Assembly (NCBI GenBank): GCA_030649135.1
Contig: JAUSGI010000008.1
Coordinates: 64,001 to 128,000 of the forward strand
DNA length: 64,000 bases
Source: a bacterium
GTDB lineage: Bacteria > Patescibacteriota > Minisyncoccia > Phycocordibacterales > Zambryskibacteraceae
Direction: 5' to 3'
Part shown: one piece after another, positions 9,604 through 52,384 of the stretch
Layout: each line of letters starts with the position of its first letter
Position numbering within the stretch: the first letter of the stretch is position 1
The notes under the pieces: generated by a model
Databases searched by the model: none
The model's input: only the letters and a program-made list of their open reading frames with translations
What the model was told of the DNA's origin: nothing
Position numbers and translations under genes: made by a program

Positions 9604-11559
9604 TCACACGTCTAAAACGGCTTTTTTAGCGTTTGATTGGATGAAAGATTTGCGGGAAGGGACGTCGGTGCCCATGAGAATGTCGAAAATACGGTCCGCT
9701 TCTCTCGCATCCACAACAGTTACTTGTTTAAGAATTCTCGCTTTTGGATCCATGGTTGTTTCCCAAAGTTCTTCCGAGTTCATTTCCCCGAGACCTTTAT
9801 AACGTTGGATGTCGGCGCCTTCGATAGTCTTCTCGTTTTTTTCTTCGTCGGAATAGACATAAATAATTTCTTTCCCTTTTTTGATTTTATAGAGCGGCGG
9901 TTGAGCGATGTAGACATAGCCGGCATCGATGAGCGGTCTGAAAAATCTATAAAGTAATGTCAAGAGTAGAGTACGGATATGCGCGCCATCAACATCGGCA
10001 TCGGTGGCAATAATAATTTTGTGATAACGGAGTTTAGTGATATCAAAAGTATCCCCTATTGCCGTGCCGAAGGCGATGACTAGGTTTTTAATCTGTTCGC
10101 TCGCGAGCATCTTATCTAGACGCGCGCGCTCAATATTGAGAATCTTACCGCGCAAAGGGAGTATGGCTTGGATGCGTCTGTCTCTTCCCATCTTGGCGGT
10201 ACCGCCAGCCGAATCTCCCTCAACGATAAAGAGCTCTGCTTCTTCTGGGGTAGTGCCAGACTGGCAATCAGAGAGTTTGCCAGGCAGAGTCATGCCCTCA
10301 AGCGCTCCTTTGCGCAGGACTGAGTCCTTGGCCGCCTTGGCGGCTTTGCGCGCCTTGAGCGCGAGTACCACCTTCTGAATCATACTTCTGGCATCATCGG
10401 GATTTTCCTCAAGATAGGCAGAGAATGCGTCACCGAAGACGGTATTAACCATGCTCTGGGCCTCCACGCTACCGAGTTTTGATTTGGTCTGTCCCTCAAA
10501 TTGAATCTCACGCAATTTAATCGAAATGACAGCAGTCAGACCCTCGAGCGCGTCATCTCCGGTGAAGTTATCCTCCTTTTCACTCACCATATTATTCTTG
10601 CGGGCGTATGAATTTAGACTTCTGGTCAGGGCAGTCTTGAAACCGGTAACGTGAGTACCGCCTTCAGTAGTGTAAATATTATTGGCGAAAGGCAGGATGC
10701 GGGAAGAGATATCATCGACATATTGCAGGGCCACCTCCACTGTCTCGTAGTCGTTACCGTTCGCCTTCTTCTCAACATAGAAAATATTTTTATGTATCGG
10801 TTTGTTTCGCTCATTTTCGAATCGTACGAGAGATACCAGTCCCCCTTCGAAATAAAAAGACATGGAAGGTGTTTCCAGTCCCAACTCTCGTAGATAAAAG
10901 ACTTCGCTATCGGCAACTTTTGCTATCCCTCGGGCATCCAGGACCGATATGCGGAGACCCTTGACGAGATATGCCTGCTGGCGCAAATGATCGGCAATCC
11001 GTTCGAAGTTGAAGTTGGTATCCGGGAAAATAGCGGGGTCCGGTTGAAAGGTAATGACGGTACCATGGAGTTTTGAGGCGCCAATTTTCTTGACTGCACT
11101 TTTTCTTTTGCCCTGGCTGTACTCTTGAGCATAAACTCCCCCATCTCGGTGCACTTCGGCCCGGCAATAAATAGAGAGAGCATTGACTACCGAGCCACCG
11201 ACGCCGTGTAGTCCTCCGGAGATTTTGTATCCCTCTCCGCCGAACTTGCCGCCGGCATGCAGGGTAGTCATGATGGTCTCGAGTGCCGAGACTTTGGTTT
11301 GTTTGTGCGTATCAACCGGAATACCCCGGCCGTTATCAACCACGCGGACACGATTGTTGGGCAAGAGCACAACCTCTATATCGTCGGCAAATCCCCCCAT
11401 GGCCTCATCCCGAGAGTTGTCGAAAATCTCCGTCACAAGGTGGTGGAGGCCGTCGGGACCGGTGGTACCGATATACATGCCTGGACGTTTGCGCACCGGC
11501 TCGAGACCCTCTAAGACCGTAATTGATTCAGCGCTGTAATTGCTCTCTTTTTTCGGCAT
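9604..11559 (-). CDS. gyrB: DNA gyrase subunit B
   Basis: GHKL ATPase motifs (LVTEIFDNSRDEAM, GLHGVGGSVVNALS). Toprim and C-terminal domains. 651 aa. Confidence 0.95.
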   Translation of the reverse strand: MPKKESNYSAESITVLEGLEPVRKRPGMYIGTTGPDGLHHLVTEIFDNSRDEAMGGFADDIEVVLLPNNRVRVVDNGRGIPVDTHKQTKVSALETIMTTLHAGGKFGGEGYKISGGLHGVGGSVVNALSIYCRAEVHRDGGVYAQEYSQGKRKSAVKKIGASKLHGTVITFQPDPAIFPDTNFNFERIADHLRQQAYLVKGLRISVLDARGIAKVADSEVFYLRELGLETPSMSFYFEGGLVSLVRFENERNKPIHKNIFYVEKKANGNDYETVEVALQYVDDISSRILPFANNIYTTEGGTHVTGFKTALTRSLNSYARKNNMVSEKEDNFTGDDALEGLTAVISIKLREIQFEGQTKSKLGSVEAQSMVNTVFGDAFSAYLEENPDDARSMIQKVVLALKARKAAKAAKDSVLRKGALEGMTLPGKLSDCQSGTTPEEAELFIVEGDSAGGTAKMGRDRRIQAILPLRGKILNIERARLDKMLASEQIKNLVIAFGTAIGDTFDITKLRYHKIIIATDADVDGAHIRTLLLTLLYRFFRPLIDAGYVYIAQPPLYKIKKGKEIIYVYSDEEKNEKTIEGADIQRYKGLGEMNSEELWETTMDPKARILKQVTVVDAREADRIFDILMGTDVPSRKSFIQSNAKKAVLDV

Positions 11560-11642
11560 TTAAGTTTCCCCTATTCTAGCATAAATAGAGCTAGAAAGAA
11601 AGAGAAAATGTGTCAAAAACCCATATATAGGTTATAATTTAA

Positions 11643-12125
11643 GTGATGGTTATTTCAGAAGACAAGATTAGACGAGCAATAGAAGAAAAAGAGATAAGTA
11701 TACAGCCATTCAATGGGTCTTTACTTAAAGATGTTAGTTACACTTTCACTCTAAGTAACAAGTTTTGTCTGCCAAAAGTTACTACCGAATTCATTGACGC
11801 AAGAGATTCTATAGAGTTTGAAGAAAAAGTGATGCCTGATGAAGGATACTTACTTAGGCCTGGAGAATTTATTGTCTGTTATACCAAAGAAAAAGTCACT
11901 TTAAATAACAAATTCGTTTGTTTAATAAGTACAAGAGCATCGTTAGCTCAAATGGGATTAAATGTTACTCAAGGTTCCTTCCTGACAGGATCTGATACGG
12001 ATAACATCTTTGCGCTAGAGACAAGTAATAATGGAAACCTGCCCATTAAATTATTCCCTGGAATGAAGATAGCGAAAGGGGTTTTCCTAAGAGTAGACTC
12101 GGATTCTAGTTCTAACATTGGGTGA
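11643..12125 (+). CDS. dcd: dCTP deaminase family protein (dUTPase fold)
   Basis: N-terminal DKIRRAIEEKEISIQPF and FALETSNNGNLPIKLFPGMKIAKGVF resemble Dcd. A short 160 aa version. Confidence 0.7.
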   Translation: MMVISEDKIRRAIEEKEISIQPFNGSLLKDVSYTFTLSNKFCLPKVTTEFIDARDSIEFEEKVMPDEGYLLRPGEFIVCYTKEKVTLNNKFVCLISTRASLAQMGLNVTQGSFLTGSDTDNIFALETSNNGNLPIKLFPGMKIAKGVFLRVDSDSSSNIG

Positions 12126-12154
12126 TGTTTTGTATATACAATAAAATTATATTA

Positions 12155-12163
12155 TGCTATAAT
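12155..12163 (+). promoter_or_regulatory. Extended -10 promoter element TGCTATAAT at the start of the GC-rich island
   Basis: About 95 nt upstream of an sORF with a perfect SD. -35 not clear. Confidence 0.35.
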
Positions 12164-12257
12164 CACAAGTGGATTATACGCCTGTTTTAAGGCCAGCCAT
12201 GCACTCTCCAGGCATTTCGGGACTTGAGCCCGTTCAGCCTAGAAAGGAGGGATGTGC

Positions 12258-12431
12258 ATGCTAAATGTGATTTCGCTGGATCAACCCGTCCGGTTCGTGG
12301 ATAGGTCGGGCCAGCCCTGCGAGGGGAAACCTCTATTTCTCTCGCGGGACACGTATGGTAACTGGGGTCTCTCTGTTCAATACAGTGAAACAGGGATTTC
12401 CTGGGTTGCTTTCGACCAAATCAAGCAGTAG
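12258..12431 (+). CDS. Small ORF (57 aa) MLNVISLDQPVRFVDRSGQPCEGKPLFLSRDTYGNWGLSVQYSETGISWVAFDQIKQ
   Basis: Near-perfect SD (AAAGGAGGGATGTGC-ATG). Below the ORF-track size cutoff. Confidence 0.35.
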   Translation: MLNVISLDQPVRFVDRSGQPCEGKPLFLSRDTYGNWGLSVQYSETGISWVAFDQIKQ

Positions 12432-12485
12432 TACTGCTGGTCAAAAGCAATTGCCCGTCTAGAACAGACGTGAGCGGAAATCCAC

Positions 12486-12647
12486 ATGAAGTCCCTAAAT
12501 GGCAAGGGTATAAGTGTGGGCGAGACCGCAGACTCGGCATCCCTCTTGCCGTCTTCCAATGAGGCACGCATCTACTGTGGGCTGAGGAAGAGAAAAGAGA
12601 CAAGGCGATTGGTTCCCAATCGTCTTCCGTCCAAAGTTTGTTTATGA
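12486..12647 (+). CDS. Small ORF (53 aa) MKSLNGKGISVGETADSASLLPSSNEARIYCGLRKRKETRRLVPNRLPSKVCL
   Basis: Same frame as the previous sORF. Weak RBS. Could instead be part of a structured RNA. Confidence 0.2.
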   Translation: MKSLNGKGISVGETADSASLLPSSNEARIYCGLRKRKETRRLVPNRLPSKVCL

Positions 12648-12910
12648 AAATAGATTTTGGACGGAGGAGGTATCCCAATATATCCATGACCTAACTAGGC
12701 CATTATTTTAGAGCGTATTTAATACCATCAATCATGATTGACTTATCTATTTACATATGCTATCATTAACAGCAGATTAGATCGCAAGGCTTCCGTTCCC
12801 CGCCAGTTAAAGGGGATTACAAACCGGCATCGACTCACAAGATGAGTCATGCCAATGAAGTTCCTTCAAGAGTCTCAGTCACACAAGTGACTAGACGCGG
12901 GAGAAGTAAA

Positions 12911-13258
12911 ATGTGGTATCAGTACGGATGGGGAGAAGAGAAGGACATGCAGCGCTCAGCAGAGCGTTGGATGTGCAAGGGGTTTCAAGTTCGGGCCAAC
13001 CTCCAGCAGGGGACGGCTTGGGCCCTCGTGTCGGATTTCACCTTCCCTGGTGCGATCCCACATGAGACTTGCCCGGATTGTAGGGGAACCGGCTGGTGCT
13101 CGCACCATATCCCGGACTGCCCTGGCGAGCAGGTCTGCGACGGGAAGTGCTACACGTGCGTCGAGAGCGGGACGATCTGCCTCCAGCCCACCTGGGCGGA
13201 GGGTCGGGTCGTAACGCTCGAGGAAGCGGTGGCCTACCTGAAGCAGGGCCATCACTAA
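12911..13258 (+). CDS. Cys-rich protein with a DnaJ CR-type zinc-finger-like motif (CPDCRGTGWC...CPGEQVCDGKCYTC)
   Basis: Start chosen at the internal ATG with SD GGGAGAAG (the ORF track starts at 12842). GC-rich. Confidence 0.5.
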   Translation: MWYQYGWGEEKDMQRSAERWMCKGFQVRANLQQGTAWALVSDFTFPGAIPHETCPDCRGTGWCSHHIPDCPGEQVCDGKCYTCVESGTICLQPTWAEGRVVTLEEAVAYLKQGHH

Positions 13259-13277
13259 GATCACAACGTGTCACCAA

Positions 13278-13319
13278 GGCCCTGCGCGACTAGCAATCGC
13301 GCAGGGCCACTTCTTTTTA
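13278..13319 (+). terminator. Rho-independent terminator GGCCCTGCGCGA-ctagcaa-TCGCGCAGGGCC + ACTTCTTTTT
   Basis: 12 bp perfect GC stem followed by a T-run, directly after the island gene. Confidence 0.75.
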
Positions 13320-13436
13320 CACTCCTTCTTCTATTCTCGTTCTTACATTTATAATACGCTGTAGCGTAAATTAAGTGTATACGTTATAAAGTGTCTATAG
13401 GTAGAAGATAACGTGTGTATATATCTTCTTAAAAAC

Positions 13437-14579
13437 TCAAACCCTGCGAATTTCGGCTTTGAAGTCTGTTTCAGTTTTATTCTCGAGTTCGGCGTGGAGT
13501 TTATTGACCTCCTCGTTAGTTAATGTTCTTTCTAGGCTACGGTAAGTAATGCGGAAAGTGTAACTTAACTTCCCAACGCCAAATTTCTCCGTGTTCTCGT
13601 ATTTGTCCAAAAGTTCTACTTGCTCAATCAAATTTCCTCCTATATCTCGGATGACATCGAAATAATCATTGGGCACGAAGTCCTTGTCTACCACGAAGGA
13701 AATGTCCCGTATCACCGGTGGAAATTTAGAGACTTCTTTAAATTTAGTGCCAAGTGTTAATTGTGATTTCACTCTCTCGTCTGTAGACCAAAGCAGGCGA
13801 ATATCAGGCAAGTCCATGGCCATCATGGCGAGACGTTCAAGGCCGAAACCGAATGCCCAGCCGTGATACTCGGTTAAGCCGAAATTGGAAAGCACACTCT
13901 TTTTAGGCATACCGGAGCCGAGCATCTCAACCCACTTTCCCTTCACTTCCGCTTCCATCTCAAAACTTGGGTCAGTATAAGGAAAGTTATGGTCATAAAA
14001 GCGGAAGTTTGTACCTTTGTCAAAAATGTTTTCAGCAACTTCCGTAAGAACGTTTTTGAGGTCTTCCGGTTTAACGGTCATCTTGGCATCGGGCACGAGA
14101 TATAGTCCGCCTATCTGGTGAAATACATTCATATGAGTACGGTCTATCTCATCCTTGCGGTATACCTTGCCGAAACAAATTACTCTCAAAGTTTCTCCCC
14201 TTTTTATTTTTTCCTTGATAGACGGATGGTTCAAGTAGTAATACCAGAATACCGTGTCGTGAGTACGTAACACATGATTTTCGTCCACATAATATGTGTC
14301 TGATTTACTTCTGGCCGGGTGTCCGGGAGGCATGTTAAACAAGTCAAACAAAATCTCGGTAGAAATAATTTCCGGTATTTGAATTATGTCAAAACCTTCA
14401 AGACTCCGGACTTTGAGAGTTCGGTCCACCACCTCCTTTAATGGGCTGCCGGTAGCGCGAGAAAGGTCCGGTAGGGAAAGAAAGCGTTTCAGGCGCTCCG
14501 ATTCCGGGTCGTTTTTCGTCTCTAGGTCCTTGCGTAATTTCTGCTCTTCCTCTGATTGAATTACTATATTTTCTGCCAT
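13437..14579 (-). CDS. pheS: Phenylalanine--tRNA ligase alpha subunit
   Basis: Class II aaRS motifs (FNMPPGHPAR..., GLERLAMM). Confidence 0.95.
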   Translation of the reverse strand: MAENIVIQSEEEQKLRKDLETKNDPESERLKRFLSLPDLSRATGSPLKEVVDRTLKVRSLEGFDIIQIPEIISTEILFDLFNMPPGHPARSKSDTYYVDENHVLRTHDTVFWYYYLNHPSIKEKIKRGETLRVICFGKVYRKDEIDRTHMNVFHQIGGLYLVPDAKMTVKPEDLKNVLTEVAENIFDKGTNFRFYDHNFPYTDPSFEMEAEVKGKWVEMLGSGMPKKSVLSNFGLTEYHGWAFGFGLERLAMMAMDLPDIRLLWSTDERVKSQLTLGTKFKEVSKFPPVIRDISFVVDKDFVPNDYFDVIRDIGGNLIEQVELLDKYENTEKFGVGKLSYTFRITYRSLERTLTNEEVNKLHAELENKTETDFKAEIRRV

Positions 14580-16556: not shown

Positions 16557-16589
16557 GTATCTGTATCGAGACGGGAAGAGAATTTAGAG

Positions 16590-16946
16590 TTAGGTCTTGA
16601 GTGACCACGGCGGCTGGAGTTTCCCGATGTAGGTCTTTGGCCCGCCGTACTGATCTGCTGTGATGTCGACGATCGTCCCGTCGTCCATCTGAAAGAACGT
16701 GTGGTTTTCCTCGCCGTACCTCCCTTGGATGATTGCGCCTAAACCGAGTCGGTGGCGCAGGTAGATAGTTGCCGCACCACAGGCAAGGTGCGGGAACGAG
16801 CCGAGTATTTGCTTCACGAAGAGTGCGGTATCACCGACATCGGCATACGCGCCATAGAGTTCGGCAAGTAACGCCTCGTCGACACTCTTCGTCTCGAACG
16901 CTCTCCGGACATCTCCCACGATGCTTTGTAGTTCGGCTTCGTACAT
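16590..16946 (-). CDS. Hypothetical protein (118 aa), GC-rich island
   Basis: SD AAGGGGGTGGTG before the ATG. Follows the truncated carbamoyltransferase remnant. Confidence 0.45.
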   Translation of the reverse strand: MYEAELQSIVGDVRRAFETKSVDEALLAELYGAYADVGDTALFVKQILGSFPHLACGAATIYLRHRLGLGAIIQGRYGEENHTFFQMDDGTIVDITADQYGGPKTYIGKLQPPWSLKT

Positions 16947-16989
16947 ACTGCACCACCCCCTTACACTTCTAGTATACCACTTCGGCGCG

Positions 16990-17196
16990 TTAGGTACGTT
17001 TTACAAGTAGAAACCGATCAAGCACGAGCGCATCGAGGTTCATCCGCAGGAACGTTCGCACTGCATCCTGTGGCGTCTCGACGATCGGCTCATCCTTGGA
17101 GTTGAAGGAAGTATTCACCACGACTGGGATACTGGTGATCGAGGCAAACTCGCTGATAGCTACCTCAACTCCGAAAACCAAATGAATGTGTTATAG
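16990..17196 (-). pseudogene. C-terminal remnant of a NodU/CmcH/HypF-family carbamoyltransferase
   Basis: VVVNTSFNSKDEPIVETPQDAVRTFLRMNLDALVLDRFLL matches the conserved carbamoyltransferase C-terminus. An upstream in-frame stop leaves only about 68 codons. Confidence 0.55.
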
Positions 17197-17302
17197 AGGC
17201 GGTCACTTATTAGAAGAGACATTGGTTGATTAAGGGATAAAAATTGGTTAGACTAACGTTAGACTAATAATCGTCAGTAGACGAGGAGAGAGAGGGCATA
17301 CC

Positions 17303-17461
17303 ATGAGCTGGGAAGATGTTCCAGTAAGAATTATTATTTCACCAATGCGGGAGGTGCCAGCCAAGGAAGCAACGTCTCTGTTCAAGATCATCATGCGGAC
17401 CCAACAGACTAAGCCTATTCCTCTAGTGGATAAGGCCCCAGGTCACGCGAGCACCGACTAA
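17303..17461 (+). CDS. Small ORF (52 aa) MSWEDVPVRIIISPMREVPAKEATSLFKIIMRTQQTKPIPLVDKAPGHASTD
   Basis: SD GGAGAGAGAGGG upstream. Below the ORF-track cutoff. Preceded by a TTAGACTAA x2 direct repeat. Confidence 0.25.
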   Translation: MSWEDVPVRIIISPMREVPAKEATSLFKIIMRTQQTKPIPLVDKAPGHASTD

Positions 17462-17505
17462 AGAAAATAGTCGTGTGTCTTCGCTGGCCTTTTTAATTTT
17501 CAAAC

Positions 17506-17581
17506 TGGAGCCGGGAAGAGGACTCGAACCTCCGACCTGAGCTTTACAAAAGCCCTGCTCTACCAACTGAGCTATCCCGGC
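17506..17581 (-). tRNA. tRNA-Thr (anticodon TGT)
   Basis: Reverse complement GCCGGGATAGCTCAGTTGGTAGAGCAGGGCTTTTGTAAAGCTCAGGTCGGAGGTTCGAGTCCTCTTCCCGGCTCCA. CCA encoded. Confidence 0.85.
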
Positions 17582-19289: not shown

Positions 19290-19322
19290 TGGTGACTGTT
19301 GGGTCTGCGGGAGCGCGGACGC

Positions 19323-19580
19323 TTAGCTGGGCGTTTCCTGTTTTCTTACCTTCCTTTTCTTGCGAAAAGGAGAGTCACGGTGTAAGACGGTACACCACGC
19401 CTTACCGTCGCTTCCAGCCTCGGCGCTACCAGATATATAGCCCCGGTAGTCTACGAGGATGTCCTCAGAGCCGGACATGCCAGGCGTGTGGTTTTCGCAC
19501 CACTTGATCTCCAGCATTTCCTTCGTGGAGTCGGCATCTCCTTCACACCCTGGGCAGTAGGGGCGCGCCGTCTCGCTCAT
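19323..19580 (-). CDS. Hypothetical Cys-containing small protein (85 aa from MSETARPYCPGCEG...)
   Basis: SD GGAGGG. ATGA overlap with the upstream gene. GC-rich islet. Confidence 0.45.
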   Translation of the reverse strand: MSETARPYCPGCEGDADSTKEMLEIKWCENHTPGMSGSEDILVDYRGYISGSAEAGSDGKAWCTVLHRDSPFRKKRKVRKQETPS

Positions 19581-19834
19581 AGCGCCCTCCCTGCAGTCCA
19601 CAGACCAAGGTCGTAGAGACGGCGTTTGTCGAGGTTCGCGTCGTACCTACAACGACTGCACTGTACCCTGATAGACTCGCCTTTCACGAGCCCCATGATG
19701 ACCATCTCGGCCTTGCAGACGAAGTGTATGGCCTGGTTGTTCTCGATGGTGATGGTTCTCGGGTTCTTCGTCTGGTCAATCCGTAGGATAGGGGGTAGGT
19801 CATCCTTATCACTCAAAAATGCTAGGAGATTCAA
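19577..19834 (-). CDS. Hypothetical small protein (85 aa, apparent TTG start)
   Basis: Translationally coupled to 19323..19580. GC-rich. Start uncertain. Confidence 0.35.
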   Translation of the reverse strand: MNLLAFLSDKDDLPPILRIDQTKNPRTITIENNQAIHFVCKAEMVIMGLVKGESIRVQCSRCRYDANLDKRRLYDLGLWTAGRAL

Positions 19835-19894
19835 ATAGTTCGGAGCGGCCTAACCCCACCTTACCTAGAAATATAGAAAAATCAACCGGGGTGT

Positions 19895-32460: not shown

Positions 32461-32742
32461 TTACATAGGTCGACGATCGCGAGGAGCGCGAGGCTCTAGC
32501 GGGCGAGCAACATTGACAGTCAACTTTCTACCTTCGTAGTCTTGACCATTGTACATGTTAATCGCTGCTTGAGCTTCATCATCATTTGACATCTCGACGA
32601 ATCCGAAACCTTTGCTTCTGCCGGTCATGCGATCAATAATAATTGATGCAGAGGAGACAGCTCCAGCCTTTGCGAACAAGTCGCTAAGGGCTGCTTCTGT
32701 CGTGGAATAAGGAATCCCACCGACGTATAGCTTTGTTGCCAT
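32461..32742 (-). CDS. RRM-type RNA-binding protein
   Basis: RNP-2 (LYVGGIP) and RNP-1 (KGFGFVEM) motifs. Start placed at MATKLYV, although the ORF frame is open up to 32772. Confidence 0.8.
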   Translation of the reverse strand: MATKLYVGGIPYSTTEAALSDLFAKAGAVSSASIIIDRMTGRSKGFGFVEMSNDDEAQAAINMYNGQDYEGRKLTVNVARPLEPRAPRDRRPM

Positions 32743-32890
32743 TTTATTTGTGCCGACATTTAAGTTAAGCATGTAAGTGTCGGACCGATCTCATCTCGCG
32801 CTCTCTCTCGGATAAACCTCAAGTAACCTCTCAACGAGAACCTTACATTGCTTGATTATAGCATATAGTCCTAATTTGTGCAAACTTGCT

Positions 32891-42097: not shown

Positions 42098-42133
42098 GTG
42101 GCAGTTTGGGGAGGTCTGCCAACCTTTACTTCT

Positions 42134-42322
42134 CTACTCGGCGGGTCGGAACTTACGACGAGGCCGACTTTGTTTCAGGTCTTCGTCACACCCTACCATC
42201 TCCCTTTCTATCACATCCTGGTCAGAGAGGTCTTCATCCTCCGACCCATGCATCAGTCCAAAACCCTTAAGGAGTCGAATTTCCTTACTCGAAGGATCTA
42301 CGCCTGTCTTTCTCTTTTTCAT
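42134..42322 (-). CDS. Hypothetical small protein (62 aa), GC-rich island cassette 1
   Basis: SD AAGGAGCCCAG-ATG. TTGACAA -35-like element upstream. Confidence 0.45.
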   Translation of the reverse strand: MKKRKTGVDPSSKEIRLLKGFGLMHGSEDEDLSDQDVIEREMVGCDEDLKQSRPRRKFRPAE

Positions 42323-42446
42323 CTGGGCTCCTTATGTCCTGCTTCCCTTTCGATTATGTTCAGGGTGAAGGCTTACAGACACTAACGCTCTGTCCTTTAG
42401 AGTGGCATGAACAAGCTAGTTTGTCAATTAGTTGTAATCGTTGTAT

Positions 42447-42478
42447 AGAAAAAGGACCCTCCATGCTGGCAGGGTCCC
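42447..42478 (-). terminator. Intrinsic terminator GGGACCCUGCCAGCAUGGAGGGUCC + UUUUUCUAU (minus sense), preceded by a second hairpin at 42486-42505
   Basis: Hairpin followed by a U-run. Downstream of cassette gene 2. Stem-loop sequence related to the terminator at 43443-43479. Confidence 0.65.
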
Positions 42479-42555
42479 GTTGTGAGTTGAGGCCGTGTCC
42501 TCAACTCGTTTGTACTTAGGCGTGACATCGGCACGCATTGGGATCTGAAACTCTG

Positions 42556-42786
42556 CTAGTCCCCGATCGCCCCACTTCGTGAGAACGGGCGAGAGACGCC
42601 CGGTAACACCCGGGACGGATCCATCCCGAGGCGCTGCCTCAGCCACGCGACCCACTCCGGATAGCTCGGAGTGAGAAGCACGACGACCTCGTCGTAGGTC
42701 GGCGTGTCCCCAAGCACGTCGCACACGGCTGGCAAAAGAAGCCGGCGTGTTTCCTTGTCGAGTCTCCGACCCGATGCGTCATTCAT
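42556..42786 (-). CDS. Hypothetical small protein (76 aa), cassette 2
   Basis: SD GAGGAGAAGG before the ATG. Structured GC-rich leader. Confidence 0.45.
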   Translation of the reverse strand: MNDASGRRLDKETRRLLLPAVCDVLGDTPTYDEVVVLLTPSYPEWVAWLRQRLGMDPSRVLPGVSRPFSRSGAIGD

Positions 42787-42920
42787 TGCCTTCTCCTCAT
42801 CGCGCTTTGCGCGACTTTAAACATTTAGCAGTGCGTCCTCTTGCGAGGCCTATACGCACTGCGGTTCAGCCCCCTCTGTGCGGGGAATCGATACTTGATT
42901 ATATTTTCTTTCTCAAAGAA

Positions 42921-42977
42921 CTAACTGTTTCGCCCTTTCGGACTCATCAGCGCAGATACACATCTGCGAACAGCGGG
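42921..42977 (-). ncRNA. Candidate hammerhead ribozyme (type III topology, minimal)
   Basis: Minus strand 5'-CCCGCUGUU|CGCAGAU-GUGU-AUCUGCG-CUGAUGA-GUCC-GAAA-GGGC-GAAAC-AGUUAG-3'. Conserved CUGAUGA and GAAA cores. Helix I is a 7 bp hairpin. Helix II is GUCC/GGGC with a GAAA loop. Helix III is a 5 bp pairing of CUGU(U)/ACAG. Cleavage triplet GUU. Confidence 0.45.
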
Positions 42978-43019
42978 AAGTTTTGCTGAGATACTTCCCG
43001 AAACTCTGGGTTTGCACGG

Positions 43020-43340
43020 TTACCCCTTCTTCTTCTTGCTACCGGCACCCATGCCAGCGGCCATCCGGCGCTGCTCCTCCGCGCGCTCGCTCCGGTGGGC
43101 GAGGTAGCGCTTGTGCGCCGCCTCACGGATGGAGGCCGAGAACTCGGTCTCCTTCCGACGCCGCTCGGACAGCATGCGCCTGGCGCACGCCAGGCGTGGC
43201 CGCCAGAAATCGGAGGTCGCGAGTTGCTTGTCGAGCTCGACCGCGGCGATATCCGCCGCAACGGTCGAAGTGGCGACCTGCACCGGCAGGGTGCAGGCCA
43301 GAAACTCTATCACTCGGCCAATGGAGCGTGTCGCATTCAT
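43020..43340 (-). CDS. Hypothetical protein (106 aa, helical, basic C-terminal tail), cassette 3
   Basis: SD AGGAG. Promoter TTGACAA-17-TATCAT upstream. Confidence 0.5.
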   Translation of the reverse strand: MNATRSIGRVIEFLACTLPVQVATSTVAADIAAVELDKQLATSDFWRPRLACARRMLSERRRKETEFSASIREAAHKRYLAHRSERAEEQRRMAAGMGAGSKKKKG

Positions 43341-43402
43341 GGCGTTCTCCTTATCGTGCCTCCCCTTCGTCTATACTTAGGGTGAGGACTTTCTAGCTAC
43401 AA

Positions 43403-43430
43403 TGATAGCATAATACAACTTATTTGTCAA
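43403..43430 (-). promoter_or_regulatory. Sigma70-like promoter TTGACAA-N17-TATCAT for cassette gene 3
   Basis: Consensus -35 with 17 bp spacing. About 60 nt upstream of the ATG at 43340. Confidence 0.55.
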
Positions 43431-43442
43431 TGGCTTTAAATA

Positions 43443-43479
43443 GTTAAAAGTAAAAGGGCCCTCCGTGTAGGCAGGGCCC
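43443..43479 (-). terminator. Intrinsic terminator GGGCCCUGCCUACACGGAGGGCCC + UUUUACUUUUAAC (minus sense)
   Basis: Downstream of cassette gene 4. Homologous to the 42447-42478 terminator. Confidence 0.65.
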
Positions 43480-43498
43480 AGTCGAAACGCCACCTAGT

Positions 43499-43894
43499 CT
43501 AGTAACTGGTGGGGAAAGCAGATGTCAGCGCCTCCCCCTGGTCGCTTGCCGGGTTGGGGTTGAACCAAACCCGAGAGATGGACCCATGGCCGATGTGATA
43601 CACGCCGGCCAGAGTACATGAGCCATCCCGCTGTGCGGGGTGATGTACGAACACCCCGAAACGCAGACGGGCCAGCGCGGCCGCGATGCAGAACGGCACA
43701 TCCGCGACGGCATAGACGAAGCCATCGCCATGCTCGCGGACGTAGTCCGCGAGCCCATCCGTGGTGACGAACACCGTGGGGTCCTTCACGATCTCCACGT
43801 AAACACCGTGGAGAGTTCGCATCGCCCGCCGCTGTGTGGGCGACATGTCGTAACGCGATAACCAATAAATCCTCCCGATGTAAATTCTGTTCAT
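43499..43894 (-). CDS. Hypothetical protein (131 aa from MNRIYIGRIYW...), cassette 4
   Basis: The ORF track starts at 43969, but that ATG lies inside the promoter. The ATG at 43894 has SD GGGAGG...GGGGGAACC. Contains DGSCTLAGVYHIGHG (possible Cys/His catalytic pair). Confidence 0.5.
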   Translation of the reverse strand: MNRIYIGRIYWLSRYDMSPTQRRAMRTLHGVYVEIVKDPTVFVTTDGLADYVREHGDGFVYAVADVPFCIAAALARLRFGVFVHHPAQRDGSCTLAGVYHIGHGSISRVWFNPNPASDQGEALTSAFPTSY

Positions 43895-43959
43895 GGTTCC
43901 CCCACTCTGCCTCCCATTTCTCGGAGGGCTATAGGTAATACAACCTTGGTCTGCTCTCA

Positions 43960-43988
43960 CTAATAGCACAGCACAATTCTCTTGTCAA
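43960..43988 (-). promoter_or_regulatory. Sigma70-like promoter TTGACAA-N17-TATTAG for cassette gene 4
   Basis: Consensus -35 with 17 bp spacing. Lies at the island boundary with the AT-rich DUF2231 gene region. Confidence 0.5.
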
Positions 43989-51796: not shown

Positions 51797-52384
51797 ATGA
51801 AGGGACGAATTATCGTTATAATTGCTGTTTGCGCCGCTGGGATAATATTTTTTATTAGCACTTACCCATCGAAAACCGTGCGGTCTTTCCCGAACCCTGA
51901 TTTACCCCTTGTCTCCCCTGTGCTCTCTGCTCCGCCCATAGACATACTATCCGGTAATGACCCGCTATTGGCTACCCGAGCATGGATGACCTTCCAGAAC
52001 TATCTGGAATTTGCCCGCACTCATAATCTACCAGGGATAAAAAGTTTGTCTCATCAAATTTCCGACACATGTAATGACCCTGTAAAAGAGCAGAGGTGTT
52101 TCGCTCTGATGGACAGCGTGTACATTATGGCTAGTAAACTAAAGATGGACGAATTCAAACATATCCAAGCAGACCGACGCCAGATTATGATGTTTACAGA
52201 TGGACCGATAGTGGCAATTCTTTATTTCACCAGAGATGAAAGCCTTACTCCCAAGATGCTCGGCCTTAGGTTTTGTTTCGAAGAGACAACGACACCGGGA
52301 AGATGTGTCGAGGCTGATCCCAAACTGCGCGACCAGGATGGCAACGGCTGGTGGGACAACGTTGAATCACTTTTCTACCGTTAG
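51797..52384 (+). CDS. Hypothetical membrane-anchored protein (195 aa)
   Basis: N-terminal TM. No motif recognised. Confidence 0.4.
   Translation: MKGRIIVIIAVCAAGIIFFISTYPSKTVRSFPNPDLPLVSPVLSAPPIDILSGNDPLLATRAWMTFQNYLEFARTHNLPGIKSLSHQISDTCNDPVKEQRCFALMDSVYIMASKLKMDEFKHIQADRRQIMMFTDGPIVAILYFTRDESLTPKMLGLRFCFEETTTPGRCVEADPKLRDQDGNGWWDNVESLFYR

Follow-up and report, generated by a model that had tools for sequence, protein, structure and literature searches.

Patescibacteria have streamlined genomes, and bacteria of the Candidate Phyla Radiation (CPR) are poorly understood; links of their accessory genes to episymbiosis or to conflict with phages are conceivable. The closest described counterparts of the locus reported here come from groundwater Patescibacteria, in which genomic islands and horizontal gene transfer (HGT) are reported to make up as much as 13% of genome length (PMC12455944). 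We analysed a 64,000-nucleotide (nt) stretch of contig JAUSGI010000008.1 (GenBank assembly GCA_030649135.1, positions 64,001 to 128,000 of the forward strand; hereafter the window, to which all coordinates refer) from the metagenome-assembled genome of a groundwater bacterium (Parcubacteria; Zambryskibacteraceae), in which a GC-rich island of 1.2 kb (12126-13330) lies between dcd and pheS. With a probability of about 0.55, we read this island as an acquired orphan cassette that comprises two small protein genes, the translation of which would be gated by RNA structures occluding the Shine-Dalgarno (SD) sequences. From the sequence we infer that the island is transcribed and translated, that zinc is bound, that translation is gated and that the DNA originated from a mobile element.

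The island is missing from the pheS-gyrB spacer of every relative fetched. These relatives (contigs L002-L008, PheS 83-90% identical) have pheS directly beside gyrB or another gene between the two: the spacer measures 59 nt in L002 (PheS 90% identical) and about 184 nt in L004-L006, and in L007 and L008 a PaaX_M-like gene occupies the spot. Alignment with the spacers of L002 and L004 identified shared flanks (TTTACGCTACAGCGTATTATAAATGTA towards pheS, CTTTCTTTCTAGCTCTATTTATGCTA towards gyrB), and the extra DNA (Table 1) consists of the AT-rich dcd and the GC-rich island. Since pheS can lie directly beside gyrB in the relatives, we take this spot to be variable and both dcd and the island to have been inserted there, and because an independent Logan assembly (L001; SRR13727527) represents the same locus and is identical over 4775 nt, the junctions of the island are not an artefact of a single assembler. 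The PheS encoded next to the island (13437-14579, minus strand) shares 100% identity with the protein of locus tag Q7R69_02890, and its closest relatives are annotated as Patescibacteria, Parcubacteria, Paceibacterota or Zambryskibacteria. This PheS and all of its 120 listed relatives (P0001-P0120) are proteins of ~380 amino acids (aa), in which the FDX-ACB domain (PF03147) is fused C-terminally to the catalytic core (PF01409). In most bacteria the FDX-ACB domain is part of the beta subunit, and a PheS with a fused FDX-ACB recalls the mitochondrial enzyme, which is monomeric.

The dcd gene remains below the cut-off of the NCBIfam dCTP deaminase model (80 vs 92.8 bits), and no close dcd was found in GTDB genomes. 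A contig from a Hainich groundwater metagenome (L009) encodes a dcd that is 57% identical and adjoins a tRNA-Met without the island; dcd and the island are therefore not one unit, but separate acquisitions at a hot spot. The C-terminus of the dcd product has apparently been extended by loss of the stop codon, as the DNA that follows the stop in the L009 homologue (TTCTAGTTCTAACAT) lies inside the open reading frame (ORF) here.

Composition also sets the island apart. It is GC-rich, as the preliminary description had stated (0.512 vs 0.463 for the whole window and 0.358 for dcd), and ranks 17th among 628 windows of 1205 nt. The segment of its larger candidate gene, ORF115, reaches a GC content of 0.621, and values of at least 0.62 in windows of 348 nt occur only here and in another island near 43 kb; its GC content at third codon positions (GC3) is 0.77, compared to 0.30-0.58 in host ORFs. 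The duplexes predicted between SD and anti-SD are strong in the island ORFs with the exception of ORF53 (about -7 to -15 kcal/mol; -7.4 to -14.7), the host mean being -3.4 kcal/mol. Together with the absence from the spacers of the relatives, the atypical composition, codon usage and SD usage support the earlier claim of an acquired module, and the cassette appears to be recently acquired and strain-specific. Its source was probably a phage or another mobile element. Other copies of the island sequence are absent from the window; it does contain at least three additional orphan insertions with high GC3 (islands 2, 3 and 4), and for two of these the corresponding site in L002 is empty. Host genes appear mostly to lack an SD (an indicative result only, as host start codons are uncurated), and some of them start a few bases past a -10 box (SD-poor examples are 13437-14579, 32461-32742 and 51797-52384).

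Two promoters of similar quality, P1 and P2, can be recognized on the plus strand, and they have a 24-nt repeat in common. P1 (TGCTATAAT, located at 12155) is the extended -10 promoter that had already been described at the start of the island, followed by one long leader. P2 had not been listed, and because of this second promoter the island appears to be two transcription units of the sigma-70 type (unit 1, about 12170-12730; unit 2, 12773-13310) rather than one. The 12-bp-stem terminator of the preliminary description is present as well and probably ends the transcripts from both promoters. Since no U-tract terminator follows the hairpins of unit 1, transcripts from P1 probably run on into unit 2. 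A host gene for an RRM-type RNA-binding protein (minus strand, 32743-32865) has an extended -10 promoter, TATGCTATAAT, of the kind seen in the island units; self-complementary segments occur in its leader of ~110 nt.

Unit 2 carries the better supported of the two genes. ORF115, the Cys-rich protein of 115 aa noted before, looks like a real gene: its frame is the best under a codon model trained without it (ahead of the best antisense frame by 5.8 nats and of the remaining frames by more than 20), its GC contents at the three codon positions are 0.60/0.50/0.77, its SD duplex amounts to -7.4 kcal/mol, and the terminator follows 20 nt past the stop. We place its start at ATG 12911 rather than at 12842, where the open frame (ORF138) begins, because the codon periodicity sets in at ~12915. 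The product, which contains CPDCRGTGWC...CPGEQVCDGKCYTC, is probably zinc-binding. The earlier label of a DnaJ-type protein is hardly tenable: only one CxxCxGxG is present, the NCBIfam DnaJ model reached 14.3 bits (cut-off 585; E = 0.015), and Pfam gave no match to the 138-aa frame at E <= 1, so that a DnaJ CR-type zinc finger was rejected. A lambdoid antiterminator Q was likewise rejected (phmmer against PDB, E = 0.56-1.3, the alignment being limited to the Cys motifs), and in PHROGs there was nothing below E = 0.047. The leader of unit 2 is compact and folds better than its shuffled versions (z = -4.9, 0 of 200 shuffles as stable); its enclosing stem pairs CUUCCGU (12790-12796) with the SD region GCGGGAG (12897-12903), so the P2 messenger RNA (mRNA), which would encode the Cys-rich protein, may also sequester its own SD in a multi-hairpin leader.

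Unit 1 contains the second candidate. ORF57 is probably a small protein gene, and the preliminary description of it as a 57-codon ORF with a near-perfect SD and a leader of 85-95 nt proved accurate: AAAGGAGGGATGTGCATG is located at 12243 and AAAGGAGG lies 7 nt 5' of ATG 12258. The duplex of its SD with the anti-SD (-12.4 kcal/mol, spacer 7 nt) is the strongest in the region, its GC contents at the three codon positions are 0.55/0.40/0.60, and under a codon model built from the other island ORFs and ORF115 its frame beats the other five by at least 6 nats. A single-sequence AlphaFold model shows a three-stranded beta sheet at a predicted local distance difference test (pLDDT) score of 69; Foldseek found no match to this model in the PDB at E < 1. 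The leader helix pairs the SD (GGAGG, 12246-12250) with UCUCC and AUG 12258 with CAU (pair probabilities 0.79-0.92). With its SD and AUG thus buried, ORF57 would be expected to be gated, and translation may depend on refolding or processing of the RNA. The second ORF of the preliminary description, ORF53, does exist and shares the frame of ORF57, but it is probably not a gene, as its SD duplex is just -3.5 kcal/mol and a codon-frame signal is absent. Within 12180-12840, which the preliminary description could not assign to coding sequence or structured RNA, the coding signal is modest in ORF57 and absent from ORF53.

The two ORFs of unit 1 might also be the remains of one gene. In that case the island would be decaying foreign DNA without a current function, and ORF57, the gap and ORF53 would represent a gene of ~130 codons broken by two stops: the ORFs are in the same frame and are split by TAG (12429) and TGA (12471), a weak excess of GC at third positions extends in this frame to about 12630, the basic tail of ORF53 recurs in ORFs of islands 2 and 3, and island 4 bears a clear gene fragment, the C-terminus of a carbamoyltransferase (E = 2e-16). 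However, nothing is broken in the promoters, the SDs, ORF115 or the terminator, ORF53 is devoid of a codon-frame signal, and the streamlined genomes of Patescibacteria would be less expected to keep 1.2 kb of junk. We therefore regard decay as unlikely, and prefer to see in the island a cassette of two small protein genes.

Downstream of ORF57, the rest of unit 1 (12432-12732) is judged to be non-coding and probably stabilises the transcript. The large imperfect hairpin noticed earlier was found at 12623-12668 (21-nt arms; an 18-bp stem in the minimum free energy (MFE) fold), with no U-tract after it, and the repeated motifs were recovered, CGTCTTCC at 12550 and 12621 and GGCAAGGG and CCCTCTTGCC at 12501 and 12541, respectively. 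The idea that units 1 and 2 are paralogues was rejected, as the short motifs they share are not colinear. A closing helix joins the two ends of unit 1 (12166-12196 paired with 12695-12732; -22.7 kcal/mol, pair probabilities 0.83-1.0, empirical p of ~0.006 relative to every window of the 64 kb), and the first ~560 nt of the RNA from P1 may therewith fold into a closed domain that ends right before P2.

Folding was evaluated by z-scores against dinucleotide shuffles, with windows of 150 nt in the sliding scan. Values of about -1.4 to -5.5 were obtained across the island, and gyrB, dcd and pheS were near 0; on the plus strand, z was -6.6 for 12165-12700 and -7.0 for 12770-13320 (0 of 100 shuffles as stable in both), and the leader of unit 1 folded alone reached only -1.5. 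The minus strand still reaches z = -4.7, and in island 2, the one other island tested and thus the control, z ranges from -1.5 to -5 on either strand, its ORFs included. Since island 2 folds in excess on both strands across ORFs, high scores are no evidence for a new class of RNA; they mark GC-rich foreign DNA as such here, and not RNA genes specifically. This weakens the alternative, put forward in the preliminary description, of a structured RNA of a class not yet described.

That alternative can be made more specific: unit 1, possibly with the leader of unit 2, would be an undescribed class of non-coding RNA (ncRNA), perhaps forming a ribonucleoprotein with the Cys-rich protein, and ORF57 would be incidental. 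It could draw on the z-score of -6.6 for 12165-12700, where the plus strand is the stronger one (-214 vs -190 kcal/mol), on the high-probability closing helix that runs from the predicted transcription start site (TSS) to just before P2, on the GC-rich segment with AT-rich promoter flanks (12701-12772, GC 0.26), a pattern that RNA genes usually show where the genome is AT-rich, and on the fact that no annotator called a gene in unit 1. Nevertheless, simple perfect hairpins follow one another in the structure and do not form a multi-junction fold, excess folding, which island 2 has as well, does not discriminate RNA genes here, and ORF57 combines the strongest SD of the region with a codon signal specific to its frame and a fold predicted with moderate confidence. 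No homologue was found, and hence covariation support is lacking, the only other copy (L001) being identical. Rfam offers nothing either: with 4227 models, cmscan over 11900-13600 at E <= 1 returned only mir-299 noise on the large hairpin (21 bits vs a gathering score of 67, E = 0.2), and at the gathering score only tRNAs (five) were found in the whole window, where ARAGORN likewise detected 5 tRNAs and no tmRNA. An RNase P RNA or tmRNA, which the preliminary description had named as a refuting outcome, a riboswitch or a member of another Rfam family was thus not recovered even at E <= 1. We consider a new class of ncRNA to be distinctly improbable.

The fold-back of unit 1 also recalls toxin-antitoxin systems. 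In a hok-like addiction module, an SD-occluded fold-back mRNA would be activated by 3' processing, and a counter-transcript or the second product would act as regulator. The 5'-3' pairing and the occlusion of SD and AUG in unit 1 fit such a module, as does its position in an acquired islet, and a weak promoter-like site on the minus strand (12731-12702), together with terminator-like hairpins (12622-12606 and 12469-12453), might give rise to an antisense RNA over the 3' part. However, the antisense promoter matches only 9/12 positions and has no TG, the ORF57 peptide is hydrophilic and predicted to be rich in beta structure, when type I toxin peptides are hydrophobic, a tandem repeat array of type III style is absent (11500-13500), PADLOC, Pfam and NCBIfam gave no toxin matches, and an RNA duplex between units 1 and 2 is not significant. 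An addiction module of this kind seems very improbable. Both type I (hok/sok-like: hydrophilic ORF57, promoter 9/12, no profile matches) and type III systems (ToxIN-like: direct repeats, whether tandem or multi-copy, are missing from 11500-13500) were rejected as candidates, and so was pairing of the unit 1 RNA with the leader of unit 2, the duplex energy of which lies within the noise of the shuffles.

Table 1. Coordinates of the island features and of further features in the window
Feature	Position	Strand	Description
Extra DNA relative to pheS-gyrB spacer of relatives	about 11606-13335		Spacer alignment with L002 and L004
dcd	11643-12125	+	GC 0.36, GC3 0.30; compositionally atypical, absent from pheS-gyrB spacer of relatives
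Promoter P1	12135-12163	+	TATACA-17-TATAAT, extended -10 TG; 10/12 positions matched; predicted TSS near 12170
Unit 1, 5' leader	12170-12257	+	Helix 12198-12213 / 12237-12260 from MFE fold
ORF57	12258-12431	+	57 codons (MLNVISLDQPVRFVDRSG...), behind leader of about 88 nt
Unit 1, 3' part	12432-12732	+	Hairpin-dense, z = -4.75; hairpins of 10 bp (12603-12625) and 18 bp (12626-12665)
ORF53	12486-12647	+	53 codons; frame shared with ORF57 (228 nt = 76 codons)
Promoter P2	12738-12766	+	TTGACT-17-TATCAT, TG; as good as P1 (10/12); predicted TSS near 12773
Unit 2 leader	12773-12910	+	138 nt; four perfect hairpins within enclosing stem (MFE helices)
ORF115	12911-13258	+	Cys-rich (CPDCRGTGWCSHHIPDCPGEQVCDGKCYTC); likely start ATG 12911; open frame 12842-13258 = 138 aa
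Intrinsic terminator	13278-13308	+	12-bp stem, 10 G-C pairs, 7-nt loop, tail ACTTCTTTTT
Island 4	about 16560-17500	-	Abuts 3' end of tRNA-Thr (17506-17581)
Island 3	about 19290-19890	-	Between rpsB and methyltransferase gene; L002 spacer 91 nt
Promoter of host RRM-protein gene	32855-32865	-	TATGCTATAAT type; sequence match to island promoters
Island 2	about 42130-43970	-	Four units: promoter, hairpin leader, strong SD, small ORF
Type III hammerhead	42922-42976	-	RF00008, 37.5 bits, E = 5.8e-6, under gathering score 48.5

Several results weigh against the interpretation of the island as a cassette of two protein genes. Searches with ORF138 against 5.8 billion clusters (k-mer/HMMER) and with ORF138/115 against 1.84 billion representatives (full HMMER) revealed no homologue, and neither did pattern scans, which need exact words, with ORF115 and ORF57 against IMG/VR and with ORF57 against GTDB genomes. 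There is thus no evolutionary evidence of translation for ORF57 or ORF115. The NCBI and Logan gene callers did not report either ORF, and Logan called instead an antisense frame of 98 aa over ORF115. The length of ORF57 is within chance expectation for a sequence of 51% GC and its codon margin is modest; for ORF115, an AlphaFold model without alignment was uninformative (pLDDT 43). Ordinary mRNAs do not usually show z-scores of -5 to -7 and a helix that closes the 5' and 3' ends, features that would also fit a functional ncRNA. Finally, the island locus contains no integrase or transposase ORFs and no boundary repeats, and no donor lineage was identified.

Other searches with the island were negative as well. 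Blastn of its DNA and tblastn of its concatenated ORFs against phages and plasmids gave no match, and nothing significant was obtained from the Pfam, PHROGs, PADLOC and NCBIfam profile libraries. Three HMMER matches of ORF138 were dismissed as artefacts of repeats in the matched proteins, and the antisense ORF of 98 aa matched only itself. ORF115, ORF57 and ORF53 are absent from a collection of 15 billion proteins, and therefore no annotator had called them.

The cassette is accompanied by the further insertions in the window (Table 1). Island 2 encodes ORFs of 131, 106, 76 and 62 aa, the first three with GC3 of 0.74-0.83, and includes two near-identical modules of terminator, promoter and leader (about 43480-43340 and 42480-42320). 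Three of its four ORFs are annotated as hypothetical in the NCBI record, and in the protein collection each of the four stands alone or nearly so. Between the 106-aa and the 76-aa ORF lies a type III hammerhead with a canonical CUGAUGA...GAAA core (CUGAUGAGUCCGAAAGGGCGAAAC), which the default scan missed because its score is below the gathering score; neither its sequence nor the leader motif of island 2 had an exact match in IMG/VR. Island 3 comprises two small Cys-containing ORFs (GC3 0.68-0.69), and its terminator takes the 3' arm from host sequence, which L002 has in common. Island 4 encodes an orphan of 118 aa (GC3 0.68) with a weak YunG-like match and a 63-aa fragment of a carbamoyltransferase C-terminus (PF16861, E = 1.8e-16), which is a gene remnant; in L002, where this insertion is absent, nothing separates the tRNA-Thr from the next gene. 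The possibility that the island ORFs are paralogues was rejected, the only sign of it being a weak CPxC...WC match between ORF115 and an ORF of island 3 (E = 0.002, in a database of ten sequences). It seems a long shot that the four insertions (12.1-13.3, 16.6-17.5, 19.3-19.9 and 42.1-44.0 kb) represent copies of one undescribed kind of small cassette that settles at intergenic sites of a Parcubacteria genome, and the closed unit 1 RNA of ~560 nt a new structured RNA, possibly acting with the zinc-finger protein; both insertions tested for folding are hairpin-saturated, and the one at 42.1-44.0 kb is the bearer of the hammerhead.

If the island is indeed an acquired cassette of two small protein genes, it adds another case of orphan genes acquired horizontally by a streamlined CPR genome, and two probable small genes that are missing from the public record would merit annotation. 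A role in host takeover, defence or anti-defence would be a guess. The finding would gain weight if the folded transcripts were functional as RNA, or if the insertions shared a mechanism of insertion.

Among known systems, hok/sok mRNAs resemble unit 1 in being long, very stable and located on acquired DNA, with predicted pairing of the 5' and 3' ends and a buried SD and start codon, but the ORF57 peptide is not hydrophobic, a convincing antisense RNA gene is absent, and there is no sequence similarity. With the OLE, ROOL, GOLLD and HEARO ncRNAs, unit 1 has in common a GC-rich intergenic segment of ~0.5 kb with a strongly negative z-score and its own promoter, whereas it matches none of the Rfam models, shows no homologues or conserved architecture, and includes an ORF in which a strong SD is joined by codon usage resembling that of coding sequence. 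ORF115 is similar to DnaJ-like CR-type zinc fingers in its CPDCRGTG followed by further Cys pairs and in a weak alignment (E = 0.015), but it has one canonical motif in place of two to four repeats (four in DnaJ) and no J domain. Its alignment with the zinc finger of the phage antiterminator Q is also weak (PDB 7ubj/4mo1, E = 0.56-1.3); no Pfam match to the Q family was found, all E-values are non-significant, and the structure model is uninformative. The orphan-gene ('moron'-like) islets of groundwater Patescibacteria (PMC12455944) agree with the island in more respects: both are strain-specific insertions at intergenic hot spots with atypical GC content and codons, have their own promoter and terminator, carry genes without detectable relatives, and occur several times per genome. 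Unlike those islets, the island has no integrase, transposase, repeat boundaries, phage genes or identified donor, its transcripts would be unusually rich in structure, and its SD use contrasts with that of a largely SD-less host. In kind, the island therefore belongs to a documented category, the HGT islands of groundwater Patescibacteria (PMC12455944), and what is unusual here are the pervasive hairpins, an SD usage that contrasts with the host, and the fact that 64 kb contain several such insertions, of which one carries a hammerhead.

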